Origin: Phyllosticta citribraziliensis
Lineage: Eukaryota
Reading direction: 5' to 3'
DNA length: 64,000 nt
Assembly (NCBI RefSeq): GCF_038025025.1
Contig: NW_027117345.1
Location: 1,550,001-1,614,000 of the forward strand
Position 1 is the first letter of the stretch; every line of letters starts with the position of its first letter. Position numbers and translations under genes: made by a program. Under the pieces are notes generated by a model. The model saw only the letters and a program-made list of their open reading frames with translations, was not told the DNA's origin and did no database searches. This document shows, in pieces, positions 20,604 through 36,209 of this stretch.

Positions 20604-22660
20604 CTAAGAGGCCATTCGGTAGTTCCCGGATTTGTATGGATCCCCCTCAGGCTCGATTGGATCTCCTTGCGGCGTAACGACCACTTGGCCATCTGGCTGA
20701 TCGTCTTCGGCATCAAAGAAGTGGACGATGGCCGGTGGATGCCCTTTGGTACCATACACCGGGCCGCCGAACTGGAGGTAGCCTTCGACCAACGGAAGTG
20801 GGTACTTGAGCAGGTCGGTGGAGTCGCCGTATACCAACACTTGTTGCATGCCTGTGCTTGGTTAGAGGATTTCAATTCGCAGGTGCGATTGATGACCAGG
20901 ACGCGGTAGGTTTGAAGACTTACCCATCAACATGTGTTGCAGGATGTGGCAATGCATCATGAACACTCCGGCTTGCGTAACCCGATGTCGCCAACCCATC
21001 CAGGAGTGCTTGACCCCGGTCTTTTCCTTGGACGAGTATCGATAGAGCATGCTCGAGTCTCGAACCACAGGCGTGTGTCCGGCTGCGGCCAGTTTCAGCT
21101 CATTTTCCGTCCGGTTGTATTCGCCCTTTCCACTGCCGATGTAGAAGCAGTGCTTGCCGTGGATGTGAATCGGATGGACGTCTGCCCCCCCTTGCGTGGA
21201 TCCAGTGTTTTCGAAGATGAACTCGATCACCTCTCCAATCTTGAAAGGCCAGGCTTTGGCGTTGGGGTCCACGCCACCGTTGGCAATTGCAACATCGTAG
21301 TTTGGCAAGAATTCGCTTCCATTTAGATAAAGAGCCACCAGGTAGGGGATGCGGACTGATTCTTCGACCCAGGGGACACCGTTTTGCAGCCACGTCACAT
21401 GCTCGTCTTTGGTTTTAAAGTCCGTCGTCAGTTGAAAGATGTTGACATAAACAGTCCGGGTCACCTCCTCCGCGGTCGGAAAGTCTGGTTCCGGAGTCAA
21501 ATTTTGCAGGTCGTAATCAAGCCAGCCCTGGACTGTCGGAGGAAGGTGGATGGGAGGGGTCGGGGGAGGTTCCAAGTTGTCGATGTGCTTCGTGGCGTTG
21601 AAATCACAGCTGGTGCCATAATCAAGTATGGCATAGGAGGTGAACGAGGTCGGACGATCGCGAGTCTCGGCTTGCATGTAAAACTGCGTTCGGTCCAAGG
21701 CTCTGATCTGGTCGCAAGAAAGTCCCTTCACGAGCGTGGAGTAACGCTGGCCGGATGCGATTTGAATGAAGGGAACTTCAATGGCTTTCAGCCAGTCGCC
21801 ATCTGCCTCGATCAAGGTAAGGTTGTGCTCTTCGATTCCAACGGAAGCAAAAGAGAGCGCGGTCGCGCCAATCCATCTAAAACGGTACGTCTTTCCTGCT
21901 TCCATGTCGAAAACTGGAACCGAGCAAGATTCATCCTTATTCGTATGCGTGTAGTTGGCAAACCCGTGACCGTTTATCAGAAGTGCGCCAGTCTCTCCAG
22001 TCCACTTGAAAGGCTTTTGGGTCAACTGTTTCTTAATGTCCTCGTCGATCTTCTCGTAAAGATCGCTGAACATGACAATCTTCTCATCGTCATAGTCGTA
22101 CGGAGGTGGGATGCCAGGTTTTTGTTCAATGATGAGCGGCCCAAAAACCGTCAATGCTTGGAAGTCGACGTGCGAATGGTAAAAGTAAGTCCCAGGTCCG
22201 ATATCAATCAAGTTGATCTCATAGTCGAAATAGAACAAGGCCCCAATCTCGAACTGACTAGCTCTTGGCGAACCGTCAGCCCACGGGGCAACAGCCATGG
22301 TCAAGCCGTGCCAATGCTGCACCCCAATGTCAATCTTCAGGTACAGCCGCAAATGGACCGCGCAAGAGCACGTGTGTTTAGAGCAATACTAACCATGGTC
22401 AAATTATGGTCGGGCATGTCATTGTAGACCCTGACCCACACGACACTCCCGGATTTGAAGCGAAGGGCTGGGCCAGGAACCGTGCCATTGGCAACTGCCG
22501 ATTTTCGTTTGGTGCAGCCGATGGAGATCTCTTGTTCGGTAACCCGCAGGACGGCATCGGGAACAAAGCTGTCGTCGTGGACAACAATGTGTGGATCTTG
22601 AAATGCCCAGGCACCCCAGGCCCCAAGCCAGGACAGGAAGAAAAGAGACAACCAATCCAT
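20604..22660 (-). CDS. Secreted multicopper oxidase (AA1; fungal ascorbate-oxidase/laccase-like), 3 exons
   Basis: Signal peptide MDWLSLFFLSWLGAWGAWA. All four Cu motifs are present: HWHG, YHSH, HPIHIHG and HCHILQHMLMGM (Met axial ligand). Introns ~22319-22393 and ~20852-20923. Confidence 0.93.
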
Positions 22661-25600
22661 TTTCCGACCTTGGGACAACAGGCCTGGCAAAGCGACTGAC
22701 GCAAAGGTAAGAGGGATATTGAGGTGATTATGAGCACATGGTCCAGCAGACGCCGACGCTGGAATGTTCCGGCGGAGTTCGATTGATTCAAATACGGCGG
22801 CGGGTACGCGCCTGACCGCAACGAGACCTGGATGTACATGGACGAGGCGAAGCTGCGCGCCATTGGTGCATAATGCATGCAAAAAGGCGTTGGTGCCTCG
22901 TGTACGCGAACACTCTGACTAGTCAAATCTTCCCACAAGACGGCAACGGAAGATGCAGTGTGCCAGTCTGACAGCTGTACTGGGGTAGAGAGCGGGATAA
23001 AGGTCTTGGGATATCCTCGCACGCAACACAACATGCCTAAAGCCAATTTGAAAGTGCCGAGGGTTTTTGCGGAGGAGCTGGGTAAGTGAGCCGCACTCTG
23101 AACAGCTTTCGGGATAGCTTAAACTTAATTGCCGTTTCGTTCAGGGCACTTCTCGCGCGGGCGCTTCGTGTTCGACCGTCTTTCCATGTTTCGCTCCCCC
23201 TTGCACTAACATCGGAACCTGCGTGCGTCGAATTTTCCGGAGAACATTTTTACAAGGTCCTTCCTGTCGTAGATCCTGAGGTGGGAGAGCTGCGATATGC
23301 TGCGCGAGGTTGTACACCTACGTACAGGGCTAAGTCCAAGGTATTCGACATTGCTGTGGCACGCTTTCGGAACACGATCTTGCAGACGAGCGGAGGAAGA
23401 CATGCACAAGAAGTTACCCCAGCATTCGACCTGAGAACGTTGCAATTAAAACTGACATGCGTCTCAGCCTTGGGTTTTTGATGCGCAGGCGCTGAAGTGT
23501 TTCGGCACGGCGCTCTCGAAGCACAGCGTCGGCCCCAGAACTGCCAGATCCGGTTGGGCAGCTTCTCGCTTTTTCCCGACGAGCGTACATCCCTACAGCT
23601 GCTGTCCTACCAAGTGTTGCTTCGACAGCATCATACCGATCCATCAAGAACTCCTCGGTGTATCCGCCGACTGACACAAAACAACACCCGTCCGACTTCC
23701 AAGTCGCACAAACCAGCCGCCTGTCGGCCTTTGCACTTTTTGCTTGTTCGTGGCCTGAACGTCACGCTACCCTCCTGTCACCACGTCAAGGTTATGTGGA
23801 GAAATCGTCTACCCGGATCGCGAGTGCGAGTGGCTTCGCCGTCGGCTTTTGATCTTGCCTGAAAAGGTCATCTGCTGTTGTTTCGACAGCTGGTCTTCAC
23901 TCGGCCACGTCGGCCGAGCTGCATTAAACATATCGCTAAGCATACAGCCGAAGCCTTTTACCCCAGAGCCCGAGCGCGGGGATTGCGCCACTCCTACTTC
24001 TTCTCGGATTGCTCAAGGTCTGCGATCACGACAGCTGTGACAGCCGTGGCGGCGCTGCCTGGTGGACGGCATGCCGAGATCTACACCTCCTAGCGCGACT
24101 CCAAACATGGAAATCTTGCCAAATTCCAGACGATTACATGCATTTGCCAAGTCTTGGAGTTTTCTGCGATAGCTGCTGCGGCCCGATGATGGGTACATTC
24201 GCTCAGGTGGTGAGGCTCTGTTTCTTGGCCTTGATACTCGGCACGACAAAGCCGTCAGTCCTGTTGGTTGATGTACGAATGCGAGGATCGGAAGACCAAT
24301 GTTTACGAGCGCAGCCCGATCGACTGTGCCAGGTCATAAGTCTCGGCTCCGAGACGGTTCTACAGGCTTTCTAGCGCAGCCTCCCGACGAATTGTGCTCC
24401 ATGCAAAAGCTTCTGCCACTCATGAAGCAGTCCTCCACAGCGGATGAAGCTGATTAGAAAACCGGTCCGGTAGTTGGCTTTTCTGGAGTGTTGTTATGTC
24501 AAGACTTCTACCCCGCAAAGTATGTTGACTGCGAAAGCAAAGCAAATCGGGTCGCCGTTCCCCGGTTTTCAGATTGGGTTCTCTCCACAGTAGTGGATGA
24601 TAACTCCGGATAAATCGGCCGCCTTCTCCACGGACCTTTTGCGGATCAAACAAGTCCGGTTGACATGGCAATACTTGAGCACGACTTGATCCTCATGGCG
24701 TCAGCTCACCTCGCAGACTTTGCCACTGCTTTGTCACCCTCTGCTAAGATTGTATCACCACTTGGTTATCAATTTCAACGAAATTTGTGGCGTGGAAAAG
24801 TAAGACCTGAAGATACAGCAAGAGGACGACGACGACTCCCTTGCGTTCACATCATACCGTCTCACTTGCACCGCTGACGGTTTTGCCCACAACAGAAGCC
24901 AAGAATACTGCGCAACGGTTCTTCCCCACGGACATTAAGGACTCGTCCTCGTCAACCGACTTATTGCCAAGAACATCCGCGCGGCCGTGGACACCAGTTT
25001 TCACTACCTTGAGTTGGGCTTCCGATTGCGCTGTCGTTCGCCACAGGAGAGTCTGTCTGCCCATGCCATCACGGTTGCTTGGTTTGCTTTTCTGCTAAAT
25101 TCTGACCATGCGGTGAACAAGAGTACGGCGCGCCCTTAGGAAGATTTCTTGACTTTCACACGCGAAAAGGCTGTGGTTCGTTGTATTCAAAGGAGTTGCT
25201 ACATGAGTAGACACTACATGGCTCCGACAGCCAAACAGGAAGGTGTGAGACGTGCGATTTCATGTCTGGCGCGCTGCTTGCATCAGGACGTTGACCGCGC
25301 CATCCCCACCTTCCAAAATGGAGCAGACGTGATTCGTTCATGCCGAGATGACAGTATACAAGGCCGGCGGCGCTTGTGGTGACCGACGACCTCTGCCGTC
25401 TGGTTTTCGAGGACCAAGGGGCGAAGAAGCCAACGAACATTCGGAACCGTTCGTTCCGCCAAACCAAGTGCAGTTCATACACAGTCTCAAAATCGCATCC
25501 TCGTAGACTGTGCAGCAATTGAGTTATACCCATCTAGGTGGTTCCGTTCCATTGGAAGTATTGCCCGACCAACGCAAAATCACCTGTTCAGCAGCTAATT

Positions 25601-26255: not shown

Positions 26256-27305
26256 ATGGACAGCGAACTCGCAAGGACCCTCCCCGCCTCGTGGTACACC
26301 AATCAGGAATTGTACGGACTTGAACGCAGGGCGGTTTTTTTCAAGGTAGCGCCATGTCCCTAGACCGAGTGTCCAATTGCTTCAAGCTGACGCCTCCAAA
26401 AGTCATGGTATCTCCTTGGGCCCGTTACGAGATTCCACGAGGACAGCGTCGAGTACGAAGTTGCACAAATACCACTTCTTGTCACCAAGGACGACGACGG
26501 CGCGCTAAAGGTCGTCGACAAAAACACAGGCCGAGAGGCGCGAAGTCACACCACGCCGACAGGACTTCTCTTCGCGACCATATCAGAACAGGCGCCGAGT
26601 TTTGAAGAATTCTTTCCGGACCTGCTACACCTAGTTGGCCGGGTCGACTTCACGGCGCTCCCGCATCGCCGCAGCATCAAGTACGAAGGACGATTCAACT
26701 GGAAGACGATGGTCGACGGCTATCAGGAATGCCTCCACTGCCAGTACACGCATCCGTCCTTCTCAGTTTACTACCCGCCAACTTTTTACTCGGTCAAGAA
26801 TTTCAAAAACTTCTCGCAGCACATTGCTGACCCCAAAAAGCCCGACGACGGCCTGTTCCTGTACTTCTTCCCCAATTGCACCTTGAATGTGTACGGAGGT
26901 GGCATGTCCAGCTTTCGCGTGTGTCCAACGGACAAGGTCGGAGTCACGCGCATGGAGTTTGACTATTACCACATGGAGTCGGGAGACAAGTTTGAGGAAT
27001 ACTACAAGTTCGTCCGGCAGGTGGCGCTGGAGGACTTTGAGCTGTGTGAGAAAGCGCAGGAGAATCTGGAGAAGGGCATTTACGCCGAAGGCATCCTAAA
27101 TCCGGACAAAGAGAATGGTGTTGCATGTGAGTGCTGATCAAAGATGGATGGAGTTGGAGTATTCGTCTGACTGACAAGCGCAAAAGTCTACCAGAATCGC
27201 GTCCTGGACATGGTGTTTGACCAGCATCAAGCCGAGCAGCGGACTCCTGACCAGGAGTCGAAGGATTCGGAATCGCTGGGGCAACAGTCTCTCCAAGTAT
27301 GCTAG
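26256..27305 (+). CDS. Rieske-oxygenase family (choline/carnitine monooxygenase-like) catalytic subunit lacking the [2Fe-2S] subdomain
   Basis: Exons 26256-26345, 26403-27126 and 27187-27305. Sequence MDSELARTLPASWYT…ERRAVFFK|SWYLLG…; iron site NWKTMVDGYQECLHCQYTH and EDFELCEKAQ. No CxH/CxxH Rieske ligands. Confidence 0.88.
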
Positions 27306-27931
27306 ACGAGGTGTGGAGATACGCATCGCTTTGTTGTCCGCGGAGGAAATCTGCTTTTTTGCGACAAGCACTGATTGCTTTTCGAAATTACCGTGTCGTT
27401 TCCGTCGAACAGTATGAAAAGTCCAGCTCGTGTCGCGCACATAAATTGGGTTCCCCTTTTCGGGAAAGCCGGAAGCCATGACGTCGACGCCAGCGGATCC
27501 GTGTGGTCAGCAGGAGTTCGTCGCCTGGCGCGGCTGACCAGGCCTGGACGTTACACCTCCACCGCCGCCGTGTTTTTCTTGCGCCTGCAAGCCAAGTCAA
27601 AAAGCACCATCCCACCCACACACGTTGATAGGCGGGGTTCGTGCAGGACTAACCGCGATAACTCCCATCTCTGCCACCCCAAAACGGAATCGCGATCCAT
27701 TCCCCGCCGCTCTCTTGGACGCTGTACGCACTTCGACGCTCTCACTCACCTTCTGGACAAGGGAAGACCAGGATTCCATAACCAATTCGGGCAGGCTTGA
27801 TAGCGCTTGCTGGATCAACATTGCACCATCAACCCGTGAAAGCGACCTCAGCCGCATTGTGACGACACTTAAGATCAACGATTCACGTCAACTTGTTGCA
27901 TTTTGGCTGATTGGACTTTGCGTGCTTCGAA

Positions 27932-29468
27932 ATGGAAGGCCCATTGATTGGACTGTTTTGTCTCGCTATCCCTCCCACGGCGTTGGCGATTTGTGCCTAC
28001 ATCTTCTTCTTCCATCACGCGACCCGGGAACCAAAGTCGACACCCTTGTCCACAATATTCGCACCGAGCGCAAGACCGCCGACCATTCTAGAGGAAGATG
28101 AAGACTCGAGCAGTCCCGTAGTCGAGCCAAGTCCTCGGTATCCTGAGGACTGGAACAGCAGTGACAGGGTATTTTCTGTGGAGCGGCGTGCCATTTTCAG
28201 CAAGGTGAGGCAACGAGGAACAGCAAGATGGCCAACAGGTACCTGATTCACGGTGCAGCAATGGCTATTCATCACCCATCGCAGCCGCTTTTCCAGGCCC
28301 GGAGACTATCACACTTTCCAGATTGCCGGATTCCCGATTTTCCTCATCCTTGGAAAGGACCACGTGATTCGAGCGTTCCATAACGTTTGTCGTCACCGCG
28401 CCTATGTTGTTGTCAAGAAGAAGTCAGGCTCGTCCACGGTCCTGGGCTGCCGCTATCATGGGTGGTCTTATGATACCAGGGGCTGTCTGGTGAAAGCGCC
28501 GGCTTTTGAAGACATTAAGAATTTTGACAAGAGCAAGAACAGCCTTTTTGCGCTGCACACCCTAACAACCAAGCAAGGCTTTGTGTTCATCAACCTCAGC
28601 AGCGAGGCGCGAGATTCCTCGCCCAAATTTGCAGAAACTGACGTTCTTGCAAGTGCGTGGCGAATTTCTGAGCGATCTGCCCCGCTTACGCAGTTTGAAT
28701 TTCAGGCAGACTTGAATTGGAAGGAAGCCGGTACGTGCGGGGTGGGGAGGCTTTGAGGTGCGCTCTACGGTGCCGCGAGGCTAATCATGATGCCAGCCGA
28801 TTACTTCGAGCAGATTGGGCACACCGGCATAACTCTCCCGAGCCACGGATGGAAAACCTTTTTCATCTCCAAAGTTCCCCTTTTGTGGAAAGGGGCTCAT
28901 CCTCCCGGTGATGCTCCTGCCATTCTGGACAGCCACGGCCTGAGCACCCTGCATGTCTCTCACGGCGGGAGGCTTTGGTACACTTTGTCGGCAAACCCTT
29001 CGTCCGCTCGCCAAATTGTTTTTCGCTGCGACATCTATCTCAACTGGCCTGGTGATAATCCCCAGGGCGATGCTGCGATCCACAGAATCCAGCACAGTGT
29101 CCAGGCCCATGTGGACGCCGCTGCAAAGGCCACGCGTCCGGAGTGGCAGAAGCATCCAGGATTGCAGGCGAGTATTTTGGACTGCTTGACGCATCACCTG
29201 AGAGCTGAGAGAAAAGCGGGCAAGGAGATTTGGCCTGCAAGCCGTGAATCCGGCGCCAGCGAAAGGTTTAACCAAGCGGACATGCGTAAGTCCATCCTCC
29301 ATTCACTCGTTTGGATCTGCTCGAAATGCGCTGTGGATTTTCGGAAATGTTGTGGAGAGCTCGGCTGATTCGACTGCAGTGTGCAAGCAACTGGAGTGTT
29401 TGAAATCGAACGCGTCGGAGATGGATCCATTCGGAAAGACAGGGCAACGGAATGGCTTGGAGTGGTAA
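27932..29468 (+). CDS. Membrane-anchored Rieske [2Fe-2S] protein with degenerate oxygenase catalytic domain
   Basis: Exons 27932-28204, 28259-28730, 28797-29285 and 29380-29468. N-terminal hydrophobic helix LIGLFCLAIPPTALAICAYIFFF. Rieske motif FHNVCRHR…LGCRYHGWSY. After NWKEA there is no E/D-x2-H-x4-H motif. Confidence 0.88.
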
Positions 29469-31218
29469 AGTCGATGGGCGATAGACGTACGTGGGGACGT
29501 CCTTGGGGACGGAAATATGGAGATGCACTGAGTCGATGTTTCACCCCGTTATCGCAGCAAAAGACCTATGTCAAGGTTAGCATAATTACCAACTAGCACA
29601 AGAGGGCCAAGATCTAATCCGCAAACACCTCGATTTCAATCACTGCTTATACAAAAATAATCCCACTTACACAATATGCGTGGACTTAGCATGAAGGCGT
29701 TCCAGCTTTTAGCCGCTCTCCTAAACGCCACATGGTGAACTACACCTTTGGTCCGTGTACCACCCCTGTCGATTTAAACGTTCTTCCCCAGTACACTACG
29801 CAGGCCAAGGTTTCCACGAAAGAAGAACAACAAGGAGGTTACGGGAATGACTTCTTCGAGGTCTCACCGCGGGCTCGGAAACAAGCCAGCTACCTCAGCT
29901 CCAACCAGGTCAACAACCTACGCGGATCGGCTCGTCGGGCGGAAGCAGCCGCGCGGCTCCGAACCCGCCGTGCTGCGGATACCTGCCGATTGGCCCACGA
30001 CCTCAAACAATGGCTCGGGAAGCCGTGGCCACACTCGTAGCATTGGCCCGCTGATTCTGGCAGCCAGATCCGGGACTCCATGTTGCCAGTGAGACGTTGT
30101 CGTAGGGCTATATTTTGTTTTCAGATTGTGTGCAAAAGCCGTCCATGGCGAATGCGGCCAGATCCGGGGACGGCTGGCTTTCTAGGCGATTGATGACGGG
30201 AACAAGGGCGATTACAGTACAACGGAAGAAAAGGTCATCTGCTCCACGAGTTGAGCGTGTGCCAGTCGGAGACCGCCCAAAATGATGGTGGCGATGTGGG
30301 GTGCGATGGAGAAGGGGCTCTCCGCTTCTCTGCCCACCTTCGGCGTTTGAAAAGTCGAGAACATCCTTGACCCTCGCCGCGACCACGTGGACTTGCGCGC
30401 TACCCACCCAAATCCACTGTTGCCTTAGTATCGCTCAGGCGCTTGTTTCAACACTTTCCCTGACTATGCCGCGTCGAGTGTTCGCGACGGATGAAGATGA
30501 TCTCCGGAGAACATTGATTGACGCCGACGGGATGGAAGCGGACGGAAAGCGGCGGGAGGCAGCAAGGTGGAGAATTCAACCTTCAAAAGTTGAGTCGTGA
30601 CTTGACCACGATCGCCATCATGCAGCGTTAGTTGAATGGCCAGCTTCTAGCCGTTGTCTCCCCGCACTGGATAAATTGACCCGATTGTTGATGTGTAGGG
30701 TGGGCGGGTGAGCCTTATTGTGAAGAAGGTTATCCCCACCCACTCTTCACACCAAGGTTCTGTGTAGGCTTTTATGCTTGCGGGTGATGTGAGGGGCGTT
30801 GAAAATCAGAGTTAAAACGGCTCCAGGTCATAGAGGCCCGAAGCGATTCCTGCCGCCCCGAAGAAGAGAGTGATGATTTCATCATCGGGCAGTCGAGCCT
30901 GAAGTTTGATAGGGCCACAAATTTGTGTTCATGGTGACATCGAGTGACTTTGTATCCAAGAAGGTTCACTCAGCCTGATGAATGCCTGAATGCTTCATGG
31001 TGTTGCATGCTCATCGAAGTCATGTTGGTCATTATTCTCCATACAGCGCTTGCGTGCCCTCTAAGGGTCTGAGTTCCTAGGAAAGTTGGAAATCATCATC
31101 CTGTTGCAGAAGCCTCTGGAGTTCGCATTTTCCCTTGAGTGTTGTACCGTTCGACTTCCAATTCCACGAGGACGCATGCGCAATCAATGCGAGCTCAAGG
31201 AATTTCTCTGAGGAAATG

Positions 31219-32690
31219 TTACCGGAGGAAGTGCTGTCGGTAGTATTGCTGCGATGGTGATGCTGCTTCCGAAGTGGACTGGTTGACAGAAATACTCTTC
31301 AAGATGGCATTCTCTTTGAGTAGCACATCCGGGGGCCTTTTGACTCCTAGATCGTGCCTATCTGACTCTGCCTCTGCCTTGTAGAATTCGACTCGAGACT
31401 GCCCTGTTTCGTCGATGAACAGACACTCGTCGCTCGCGTTTGGATCTTGGACAGTCCGACTTCTCGTCGAGGTCGTGAGATTTTCAGAAATCCTGCGAGT
31501 TCGACTCTTTGCACTCTTCAGCGTCTGCAGCGACACGCTGTTCCCTGGGTTTGTGCTCTGTCTTTTCGAGCTCATCCTTGAAGCTTTTGAATCTTTGGAA
31601 TTGGAGTTGCTTTTGCCGGAACGGTCGTAGGAGTCTTTGAGCGATCCTAGTGTGGATAAACGGTCTTTGGCCTTGGCCATCGCGGTGGTACACAAAGCCT
31701 TGATCGCAGGAAAAGATGCACACATGATGCCTCCATTCAGCTCAATGTTGGTGTAAACAAGGATCCGACCTCCACTCTCTGCTTGATCCTCTGATCGCGT
31801 CCATATAACTACGTTGACCAGCCGCAGGATGGAGGAGATCAGGGCCAGAAGTCCGACACTGAAGATTGCCATGAGCGTCACGCGCCGCGCACGTGTTATC
31901 CGCAGCCTATATAGCAGAGGCATTGGGAGCAGGACGATGAAGAAGTCGGTCACAATGTTGATTGATGCTTGAGCAATCAACATCGTCTCTCGGTCGTTGC
32001 ATCTGCCGGGAATGAAAACGGCCATAGAGAATGCGTCTGAGGTATGAGGACACTGAAAGGCGTTGGTGAGGATGAAGGAGATGGCGGTGGCGCCCACAAC
32101 TGCCATAGCAGTGTAGACGGTTTTGCGGAACCAACGGTGCTCAGATATCGTGCGGTAGAAGAAGAGAATCGAAAGCTTGATGAACAGGAGGTCGACCTGG
32201 TACAAAATCTGATAGGCGTACCCTTTAATTGTCAGTTCGCGCTTTCGTTCCCGTCAAAGTAGATCCTTACATGACTTCAATGTTCCCAAGAGGAAAGCAA
32301 CAGTCTGCGCAGGTCAGAGAGCGCAAATCGAAGCAGTCGCAAGGAATGGTATTTACCTCCTCAGCTGGTGTGAACGGCGCACCAGCGCCAAAGCGCACTT
32401 GGAAAGCATTCGTAACAGTGATGCCCCATGTAATGATCTGTCGCATCGTCAGTAGGAACAGTTGAGATGCTGTTGAGCTGGACATCCTACCACTGCTGCC
32501 AATATCATGACATCCGCCAATCCAGCCCTTTTGATCACAACTACATTGCAGTACAGCCTGTTGCAATCCGTTAGAAGTATTCGAGGAAATGTTCCTGTCT
32601 GCCAAACACTTGCCTCATCAATACCAAGATCGTAGACAAGCTACTTAGCAAGAATGATGTAATCAGAGTCGCAAACTGGAGGCCAGCCAT
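31219..32690 (-). CDS. Pth11-like (fungal rhodopsin-domain) multi-pass membrane protein without a CFEM domain
   Basis: Hydrophobic exon MAGLQFATLITSFLLSSLSTILVLMR. Family motifs FIKLSILFFYRTI, INIVTDFFIVLLPMPLL, SSILRL and ELNGGIMCASFPAIK. Ser-rich tail. The 5' exon boundaries are approximate. Confidence 0.85.
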
Positions 32691-34880: not shown

Positions 34881-36209
34881 ATGGCAGAGCAAAGTACGCC
34901 CAAAAAATTACCCCGCCAAACGCGACTTTCCCGCTGATACTATTGCTAGAGCGCAGCCGTGTCTTCTTCGACATCAACATTGGCACTCAGCCTGCTGGTC
35001 GAATCGCTCTCGAGCTAGTAGGTTCCCACCGTCCTGCCTCACTCTGACCCGTCACTGACCTTCGTAGTACAATGACAGTGAGTTTCCCTCTGCTTACTAC
35101 CATGGCGCCATTTGACCGATCATGGCTAGTTGTCCCCAAGACCGCCGAAAATTTCCGCGCGCTGTGTACTGGCGAGAAGGGAGAGGGCAAGTTCGGCAAG
35201 CCGCTTCACTTCAAGGGCTCCGGCTTTCATCGCGTCATCAAACAATTCATGATCCAAGGCGGAGATTTCACCGCGGGCAATGGCACAGGCGGCGAGAGCA
35301 TCTACGGCGAGAAATTTGAGGACGAGAACTTTGAGCTCAAGCACGAGAAGCCGTTCTTGCTATCCATGGCCAATGCTGGTCCAGGTATGTTGTGCCGGGA
35401 GTGTGGGTGCCGCCGGCGAGCTGACAGTGACATGTACAGGTACCAATGGCTCCCAATTCTTCATCACCACCGTCGCCACGCCTCACTTGGATGAAAAGCA
35501 CGTCGTTTTCGGCGAAGTTATCAATGGCAAGTCTATTGTGCGCCAGATTGAGAACCTCCCCACCGGCGGCCAGGACAAGCCCGTCGCAGACAAGTATCCC
35601 ACCATTGCCGACTGTGGCGAGCTTACGGGCGACGACTACGTCAAATGTACCGAACGCGTCCCCGACAACACCGGCGATCCCTACGAGGAGTTCCCCGAAG
35701 ACCAAGCGGAGCAGCTTAGTGCTTCGGAAATAATCAAGATCGCGTCGGAAGTCAAGGAAATGGGCAACAAGGCTTTCAAGGCAGGCGATGTTCGTCTCGG
35801 TCTGAGCAAGTATCAGAAGGGACTGCGCTATCTCAACGAATACCCGGAGGTGGAGGAGAAGGATGGTGCAGATGCAGAGAAGCATCTGCAGGCTCTGCGC
35901 TTCAGCCTGAACAACAACAGCGCGCTGCTGCAGTACAAGATCAAGGACTATGAAGGCGTTGTCAAGAGTGCGACCTCGGCGTTGGAGGTCAAGGAGGCGA
36001 GCCCTGCCGAGAAGGCCAAGGCACTCTACCGCCGTGCTCAAGCTCTCGAAGCTCGGAAGCACGAAGAGGAGGCTATCAAGGACTACGAGCAAGCCCAGAA
36101 CCTGGCGCCAAACGATGCCGCTATCATCAACTCGTTGGCAAGCGCAAAGAAGAAGCTGGCGGAGCTGCGTAAGAAGGAGAAGGCGGCATACGCCAAATTC
36201 TTCTCGTGA
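34881..36209 (+). CDS. cpr6: Cyclophilin-40 type peptidyl-prolyl isomerase with TPR domain (Cpr6/PPID)
   Basis: RVFFDINIG…[57 protein letters not shown]-terminal TPR helices (KALYRRAQA) and the end KAAYAKFFS. Five exons, including a 10-nt microexon. Confidence 0.95.

Follow-up and report, generated by a model that had tools for sequence, protein, structure and literature searches.

In Rieske oxygenases, electrons pass between subunits through a bridging Glu. Could the cluster and the iron of one such enzyme then be carried by two separate genes? The question is raised by two neighbouring genes, A and B, in a 64,000 nt stretch of Phyllosticta citribraziliensis (GCF_038025025.1, NW_027117345.1, positions 1,550,001-1,614,000, forward strand; hereafter the window, within which all positions are given). 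A first-pass annotation had described them as a tandem on the same strand, ~630 bp apart, and the distance is indeed 626 bp (Table 1). As shown below, each gene has lost the cofactor site that the other has kept, and A and B are probably the two subunits of an electron relay within one heteromeric Rieske monooxygenase.

Table 1 Features of genes A and B, in positions of the window
Feature	Position	Strand	Basis or remark
Gene A, iron-site-only subunit, 310 aa	exons 26256-26345, 26403-27126, 27187-27305	+	splicing by coordinates, database identity, spliced contigs, Pfam
Connector of A, ~aa 66-79, in place of the cluster-binding part of the Rieske domain	26508..26549	+	~53 aa shorter than B or Cmo1; confident hairpin in the model, block pLDDT 95-98
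Y137, E139 (bridging Glu), C140/C143, H142, H147 of A	26721..26753	+	equivalent to CntA Y203, E205, C206/C209 and the two iron histidines; alignment to 6y8j
D241 of A, third iron ligand	27033..27035	+	equivalent to CntA D323; alignment to 6y8j
Intergenic region, 626 bp	27306..27931	.	contigs of four runs
Gene B, cluster-only subunit, 440 aa	exons 27932-28204, 28259-28730, 28797-29285, 29380-29468	+	splicing by coordinates, database identity, spliced contigs, Pfam
Hydrophobic helix at the N-terminus of B, aa 8-29, probably a membrane anchor	27953..28018	+	hydropathy 2.1; helix 10-29 in the model
Intron 1 of B	28205..28258	+	phase-0, same position as A intron 1; retained form gives an in-frame stop upstream of the Rieske motif
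Rieske ligands C135, H137, C155, H158 of B	28388..28459	+	motif in the sequence and in homologues
Region of B past the conserved NWK in which the iron site has degenerated, spanning intron 2	28715..28830	+	no E-x2-H-x4-H; aa 263-285 with pLDDT <50, disordered in the model
C-terminal Leu-Glu-Trp of B	29457..29465	+	fits the [LIM][DES][WF] cytosolic Fe-S delivery signal (PMC10623007)

Splicing by coordinates yields three exons for A and four for B, both on the + strand, and all five introns have GT..AG borders. The spliced products are letter-for-letter identical to the database proteins P0246 and P0248, which are named there as Phyllosticta citribraziliensis and have consecutive accessions (KAK7535228/KAK7535229). 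We compared these structures with contigs from four runs of four studies, whose RNA nature is the tool's guess, yet which are spliced. A intron 1 is removed in contigs of three of the four runs, whereas A intron 2 and B introns 2 and 3 are each removed in all four. B intron 1 is removed in one run and retained in the other three. Retention would truncate B, an observation that counts against our best reading. The first introns of the two genes lie at the same phase-0 position, as expected for paralogues. In two runs, contigs of A stop near 27410-27450 and those of B begin near 27600-27780; in the two others, contigs bridge the intergenic region.

A missed exon that restores the lost ligands, which the first-pass annotation had named as fatal to its proposal, did not turn up in the spliced contigs: all five introns were confirmed. 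In three runs, one contig spans 26400-27126 of A without any joint, and hence no exon restoring Rieske ligands was spliced in there. Furthermore, neither CxH nor CxxH occurs in the three forward frames of 26256-26700. On these two grounds, a missed exon in A was rejected.

The iron site of A is intact, as originally proposed, with the E-x2-H-x4-H motif and D241, and a Pfam profile search retrieves PF00848 only (E 1.3e-24), PF00355 being absent. Conversely, B matches PF00355 only (E 1.8e-15), with neither PF00848 nor a reductase domain, whereas yeast Cmo1 matches both families. The profile comparison recommended in the first-pass annotation therefore assigns one domain to each protein. Measured between two shared anchors, the segment is 53 residues long in A, 106 in B and 107 in Cmo1, which gives a deletion of ~53 aa in A, close to the "roughly 50" estimated before. 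All four Rieske ligands fall within the missing stretch. In an alignment of 63 rows, E139, C140, H142, C143 and H147 of A are invariant; the roles of these residues in a CntA-type iron site and of the bridging Glu are described in PMC7948474 and PMC10952381. Thus A keeps an invariant bridging Glu despite having no cluster of its own. The structural model of A (pLDDT 88) has CntA as its best fold match (Z 29.1, rmsd 2.4 Å over 277 residues), and the earlier assignment to a CMO/CntA-like family holds by sequence and by fold. Bridging Glu, Cys-x2-Cys, His/His/Asp triad and CntA-like fold, all features of the group Va quaternary-ammonium Rieske oxygenases (CntA, CMO, OxyBAC), are present. Neither A nor B combines cluster and iron site in one polypeptide as the canonical single-chain alpha subunit does and, judging from its sequence, A cannot supply the cluster head for a head-to-tail alpha3 ring.

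Across all six frames of the window, an intact CxH..CxxH occurs just once, in B at 28388, and both sequence and Pfam bear out the complete Rieske motif and the lost iron-binding motif claimed for this protein. In its model (pLDDT 80; best fold match also CntA, E 5e-21), an N-terminal helix precedes a complete Rieske domain, and the C-terminal domain keeps its sheet and helices; the chain is disordered just past the place of the lost iron ligands. The N-terminal hydrophobic helix recurs in 88 of the 109 unmerged B homologues among the best 120 of 304 matches. At the other end of the protein, a C-terminal [LIM][DES][WF] is reported to direct cytosolic Fe-S delivery and has been described for fungal choline monooxygenase (PMC10623007); B, ending in LEW, carries this TCR of CIA clients. 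Among the matches listed, a C-terminal W is found in 81/109 unmerged B homologues versus 0/120 A homologues, and the strict pattern in 55/120 versus 0/120, with a W or F end in 90/120 B matches. Hence, the Fe-S delivery signal stayed with the cluster-binding half, and this tracking of the cluster by the Trp tail agrees independently with the TCR rule. The membrane helix and the delivery tail of B, like the breadth of the pair and the second split reported below, were absent from the first-pass annotation.

The reciprocal loss extends far beyond Phyllosticta. Among the best 120 of 411 matches to A (64-95% identity), which come from Dothideomycetes, Eurotiomycetes, Leotiomycetes and Sordariomycetes, the iron motif E-x2-H-C-x3-H is present in 120/120 and a true Rieske motif in none; the one Rieske-pattern match (P0108) was rejected as a chance overlap with the iron motif. 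Among the best 120 of 304 matches to B, the Rieske motif is present in all, and the His pair after NWK in 0 of the 109 unmerged homologues, the other 11 listed being merged A+B gene models. The family thus consists of two paralogous genes with reciprocal loss of the cluster and iron motifs.

The two genes also travel together. Consecutive tags or accessions for A and B are found in 16 annotated species, namely three Phyllosticta, Neocucurbitaria, Rasamsonia, Monascus, Penicillium malachiteum, five Aspergillus, Polytolypa, Histoplasma, Emmonsia and Emergomyces, which we take to be Dothideomycetes and Eurotiomycetes, class assignments of named fungi being assumed throughout. We took 80 metagenome loci and left one, L080, out of the synteny count, its protein being 23% identical, carrying a Rieske motif itself and not belonging to the A type. 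B is adjacent to A in 44 of the 79 A-type loci, in tandem as in the window (27) or head-to-head with one shared upstream region (17). Dereplication at 97% leaves 60 groups, of which 21 are tandem and 14 divergent. In 3 others B is not nearby, a further 21 are too short to judge, and the last is not A-type. Overall, B adjoins A in 35/38 informative groups. Co-occurrence and synteny, which the first-pass annotation had put forward as a check, are therefore largely upheld in both data sets, and the presence of tandem and divergent arrangements indicates that the linkage survived a rearrangement. The three groups without B nearby (L072; L074-L076; L079) share a variant motif, and the one examined in full is intron-rich. 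Because their flanks extend just 4.7-10 kb per side, B could lie elsewhere in these genomes. Comparing 27 loci, we found no third gene travelling with the pair beyond close relatives, and no linked reductase, transporter or regulator among the neighbours. An Mpv17/PMP22 gene is nearby in 5/80 loci and otherwise in Aspergillus records only. Upstream of 34 A genes, the k-mer ATCACAT occurs in 10/34 versus 1.4 in a background that is not promoter-matched, a weak lead. At one locus (L054), both genes are broken by a single deletion event, which was not counted toward co-dependence.

Selection was estimated by the Nei-Gojobori method on six distinct close locus pairs with usable dS, codons being mapped through HMMs, which makes the values rough. 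From the 15 rows computed, we omitted duplicates, the comparisons with the distant L002, the row of L080, and two pairs in which the dS of B was at or near saturation. The dN/dS ratio is 0.02-0.29 for A, 0.015-0.10 for the Rieske part of B and 0.13-0.65 for the C-terminal part of B (five pairs). All values are below 1, contrary to the neutral evolution that the first-pass annotation had considered as a refutation. Both genes are under purifying selection, and the C-terminal domain of B is relaxed, yet not neutral.

These ratios, well below 1, together with the 64-95% identity of A across four classes (best 120 of 411 matches), weigh against the idea of a duplicate in decay, of an artefact of gene modelling or of a single fused protein read as two. 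The merged models among the listed B matches, the broken pair at L054 and the contigs that bridge both genes in two runs could be read in its favour. However, the stop codon of A is kept in the spliced contigs and the reading frames are unjoined. Likewise, the merged models hold the start and membrane helix of B in mid-protein, one of them swallowing the next gene too, and the same species are annotated with two genes in other assemblies. We regard this explanation as largely refuted, with only a very slight chance of being right. A true A-B fusion protein was rejected, given the stop of A, the absence of a joint in the contigs and the two-gene annotations elsewhere.

In phylogenetic trees, both A and B fall inside the fungal CMO-like clade. 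The protein P0536 agrees with the published Scheffersomyces stipitis Cmo1 in C-terminus and length, and the yeast Cmo1 clade was identified on this basis. The A-type clade (100/100), which includes the yeasts Priceomyces and Ascoidea, is placed outside the Cmo1 group (97/92), on a long branch and with uncertain deeper nodes. The B-type clade (90/83) is of uncertain placement, and Rieske-domain trees are too short for placing B. With deep nodes uncertain, the trees do not show a common ancestral copy of A and B. Our best reading is that a fungal CMO-like gene was duplicated and that the two copies then underwent complementary loss. A comparable pair is found in Trichomonascus ciferrii, where one Rieske-less and one iron-less protein, encoded on different contigs, both branch with yeast Cmo1. 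A tree constrained to place the Rieske-less protein within the A clade is rejected (AU p = 0.005, for a group named after the tree had been seen). Hence, the split arose at least twice.

Other fungi show looser combinations. In Priceomyces carsonii, an A-type gene occurs alongside a full-length Cmo1, and homologue searches turned up no Fe-less partner. Ascoidea has an A-type gene and an Fe-less protein of the Cmo1 clade, not of the B clade, and Gonapodya and Hyaloraphidium contain several Rieske-less paralogues and a full-length gene. Such genomes, like the three groups with A but no B nearby, would be expected under the main rival reading, in which A is a plug-in catalytic subunit able to draw electrons from any paralogue with a Rieske cluster, be it B or a full-length CMO-like protein, B being its preferred, perhaps transient, membrane-bound carrier. 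We consider this unlikely in view of a linkage seen in 35/38 groups and kept through inversion, and of the selection acting on the C-terminal domain of B, which a free carrier would not need. Orthologues occurring independently, another potential refutation in the first-pass annotation, are thus limited to few cases (Priceomyces and the three groups). These cases tell against the word "obligate" used there, since for one yeast A-type gene a full-length paralogue was all that was found, while the heteromeric reading itself remains supported.

The Trichomonascus pair also bears on whether the two proteins cooperate at all. A and B might be co-regulated and have separate roles. In that case, A would act alone as a mononuclear iron enzyme, reduced directly by cytochrome b5, driven by peroxide or independent of external electrons, and B would serve as a membrane Fe-S sensor or redox protein. 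That the loss is exactly complementary and recurs in Trichomonascus makes this quite improbable in our estimate, as does the invariant bridging Glu of A, though this residue is possibly kept for a hydrogen bond to the iron His. Separate roles would nevertheless accommodate the membrane helix of B, absent from A and Cmo1, the intron retention of B, as possible in a regulated gene, and the peroxide shunt of CntA, which is reported to work without a reductase (PMC10952381).

We therefore favour the two-subunit relay. The mechanism that we infer, including a physical A:B complex and its stoichiometry, would be as follows. The enzyme would be cytosolic and probably membrane-tethered via B, which would be loaded with its [2Fe-2S] cluster through the C-terminal Trp signal. 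B would take electrons from a reductase; with the membrane helix as the clue, our guess is the ER cytochrome b5 or P450-reductase chain, which we assume to be a candidate donor. The Rieske domain of B would dock head-to-tail on the catalytic domain of A, like neighbouring CntA subunits, and the electron would cross via E139 of A to the iron at His142/His147/Asp241. This iron would activate O2 and hydroxylate a small quaternary amine held by Y137, with choline as the likeliest one, and C-N cleavage would give trimethylamine or an aldehyde. The emptied catalytic domain of B would be kept as a scaffold.

As for the substrate, a quaternary amine has a better than even chance. CntA Y203 is reported to bind the ammonium group and to mark group Va (PMC7948474). 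Among the best 120 of 411 A homologues, the corresponding position is Tyr in 113 and Phe in 7; Asn, the group Vb feature, occurs in 0/120. Demethylation, one of the chemistries suggested in the first-pass annotation, becomes less likely, since A has the aromatic residue of group Va and the group Vb betaine/stachydrine demethylases (GbcA/BmoA, Stc2) are reported to have Asn (PMC7948474). The pocket of A is like that of yeast Cmo1 at Y137, Y159, H170, G180, N192, Y194, S200, R202 and F233, and nearer to it than to that of the other fungal paralogue clade, while six pocket positions differ from Cmo1. Overall, A is ~30% identical to Cmo1 and, equally, to a Fusarium paralogue. Choline as the substrate is something we infer, because A is no clear orthologue of yeast Cmo1; we put its chances somewhat below even.

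Within the literature searched, a scope that leaves out most subscription journals, we found no description of a fungal split Rieske pair. Linder (2014) is said to have surveyed CMO1 homologues and could mention such split forms. In the searched text of a 2025 review (PMC12445004), we found no mention of NdmC, Micromonas, heteromeric, split or fungal forms. A/B would be an enzyme of two genes that is conserved, yet unstudied, among ascomycetes of industrial use, ones associated with plants and medically known ones. It is mis-annotated, either under the name of a complete "choline monooxygenase, chloroplastic" or as one merged gene model. Because electron input and catalysis are here naturally divided, the pair would allow intersubunit transfer, reductase docking and cytosolic [2Fe-2S] delivery to be tested per subunit; such points are described as open questions in PMC10623007 and bioRxiv 2024.01.15.575444. 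If the substrate is choline, a trimethylamine route would be identified in filamentous fungi. Repeated splits would provide a replicated case of duplication-degeneration-complementation in a ring enzyme. More tentatively, and with a chance well short of even, fungal CMO-like oxygenases may have been split repeatedly, in A/B, in Trichomonascus and probably in Ascoidea and Monoblepharidomycetes, giving soluble catalytic cassettes devoid of a Rieske cluster on the one hand and dedicated cluster subunits on the other. In filamentous ascomycetes the cluster subunit would then be a membrane-anchored wire from the ER electron chain, with cassettes exchangeable or multipliable on one electron-input subunit, and B could serve to trace the reductase on which cytosolic Rieske oxygenases of eukaryotes depend.

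Among known systems, CntA (group Va; PDB 6Y8J, 6Y9D, 6ZGP) is the best sequence and fold match of A and the best fold match of B. In CntA, the cluster-iron distance within one chain is reported to exceed 40 Å, electrons crossing between subunits via E205 (PMC7948474). A has equivalents of CntA Y203, E205, C206/C209, Y225, N270 and the iron ligands. However, CntA is one chain in an alpha3 ring, and in the sequence alignment A has Gly at the F258 position and Phe at the Y295 position. Yeast Cmo1 (S. stipitis, P0536) belongs to the same CMO-like family, with a pocket like that of A and the Rieske motif and Trp tail of B, but it is a single chain with both cofactors and no membrane helix, and A lies outside its clade. 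S. stipitis Cmo1 is thought to cleave choline to trimethylamine, a putative role described as not biochemically characterised as of PMC5816127; according to passages of PMC6157903 and PMC5816127, no fungal CMO-like protein has been biochemically characterised.

Split Rieske oxygenases are already known from algal CAO and NdmCD. The catalytic subunit NdmC of the Pseudomonas 7-methylxanthine demethylase NdmC/NdmD/NdmE is reported to lack a Rieske cluster and to rely on the Rieske domain of its partner (PMC10380055), and is in this respect like A. In that system, however, NdmD carries its Rieske domain in fusion with a flavin reductase, and NdmE, a GST-like protein, is also required, whereas B has no reductase domain; among the 27 loci compared, no NdmE-like GST neighbour of A/B was found, and A/B does not fit the NdmCDE type. 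In the heterodimeric chlorophyllide a oxygenase MpCAO1/MpCAO2, one gene has the iron motif and the other the Rieske cluster, and activity is reported to need both (bioRxiv 2025.02.10.637544, PMC9615114). This pair of Micromonas (Mamiellophyceae), found also in Caulerpa and Bigelowiella, has a two-gene cofactor split like that of A/B, while Rieske subfamily, substrate and compartment differ. A/B is further set apart by the adjacency of its genes and by the membrane helix and the tail for cytosolic Fe-S delivery of B. By analogy, then, A/B appears to resemble MpCAO1/2 rather than the canonical alpha subunit.

Two proteins of Trichomonascus ciferrii, P0340 (TRICI_001172) and P0598 (TRICI_005241), are Rieske-less and iron-less, respectively, and are encoded on different contigs. 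Both originate from the yeast clade of Cmo1, the full-length putative choline monooxygenase that carries both cofactors. This pair is a second split of a Rieske oxygenase, independent of the one that produced gene A, with the iron site only, and gene B, with the Rieske cluster only. In the database protein P0341, the first cluster loop persists as a remnant.

The yeast Ascoidea rubescens (P0332, P0587, P0597) contains a homologue of A (an A-type gene) together with an iron-less protein of the Cmo1 clade, and the yeast Priceomyces carsonii (P0329, P0526) an A-type gene together with full-length Cmo1. These combinations may represent a partner swap or an intermediate stage. In Gonapodya (P0353, P0405) and Hyaloraphidium (P0366, P0386, P0417), multiple Rieske-less paralogues of the CMO-like family are found beside a full-length gene (P0588, P0586). 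A further A-type paralogue with greater divergence (51-57% identity; P0469 from Aspergillus sydowii, P0323 and P0319) occurs in some moulds.

At one metagenome locus, both genes are damaged. Comparison of L054:9446-10793 with the 97%-identical locus L028:8444-10193 showed a 1.75-kb deletion in L054, which takes out the shared upstream region, the 5' part of B including the Rieske motif, and about the first 50 codons of A; the remaining A also carries a stop. Among 34 regions of 500 bp lying upstream of A genes, 10 contain ATCACAT, versus 1.4 in an unmatched background, and 6 contain CCAATGAG. These motifs offer a weak lead towards a common regulator.

None of the window neighbours tabulated here is common to the other loci compared. 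In Aspergillus records (A. fumigatus group), an Mpv17/PMP22 gene directly follows B, and in five metagenome loci (L038, L039, L045, L062, L063) such a gene lies 1-6 kb past B.

Putative neighbours of A and B, labelled from reading the ORFs
Gene	Window position	Strand
Multicopper oxidase-like	20862-22727	-
Rhodopsin-domain (Pth11-like) membrane protein-like	31219-32253	-
Cyclophilin-40-like	about 34900-36209	+

Intron 1 of B (window 28205-28258), which contains an in-frame stop, is unspliced in contigs from three of the four sequencing runs, and its retention could reflect regulated splicing. On the minus strand (window 29453-29900 and beyond), contigs reach the B 3' end from its downstream side, possibly forming an antisense overlap with B. 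One downstream contig lacks 105 bases at 29563-29669, whose CT..AC ends correspond to a minus-strand intron.

Outside fungi, match 8 to P0246, the database protein of A, in the ESM Atlas is a bacterial cluster of 69 members, with PF00848 (iron site) in 100% and PF00355 (Rieske) in only 13%. This cluster may include bacterial Rieske-less subunits.
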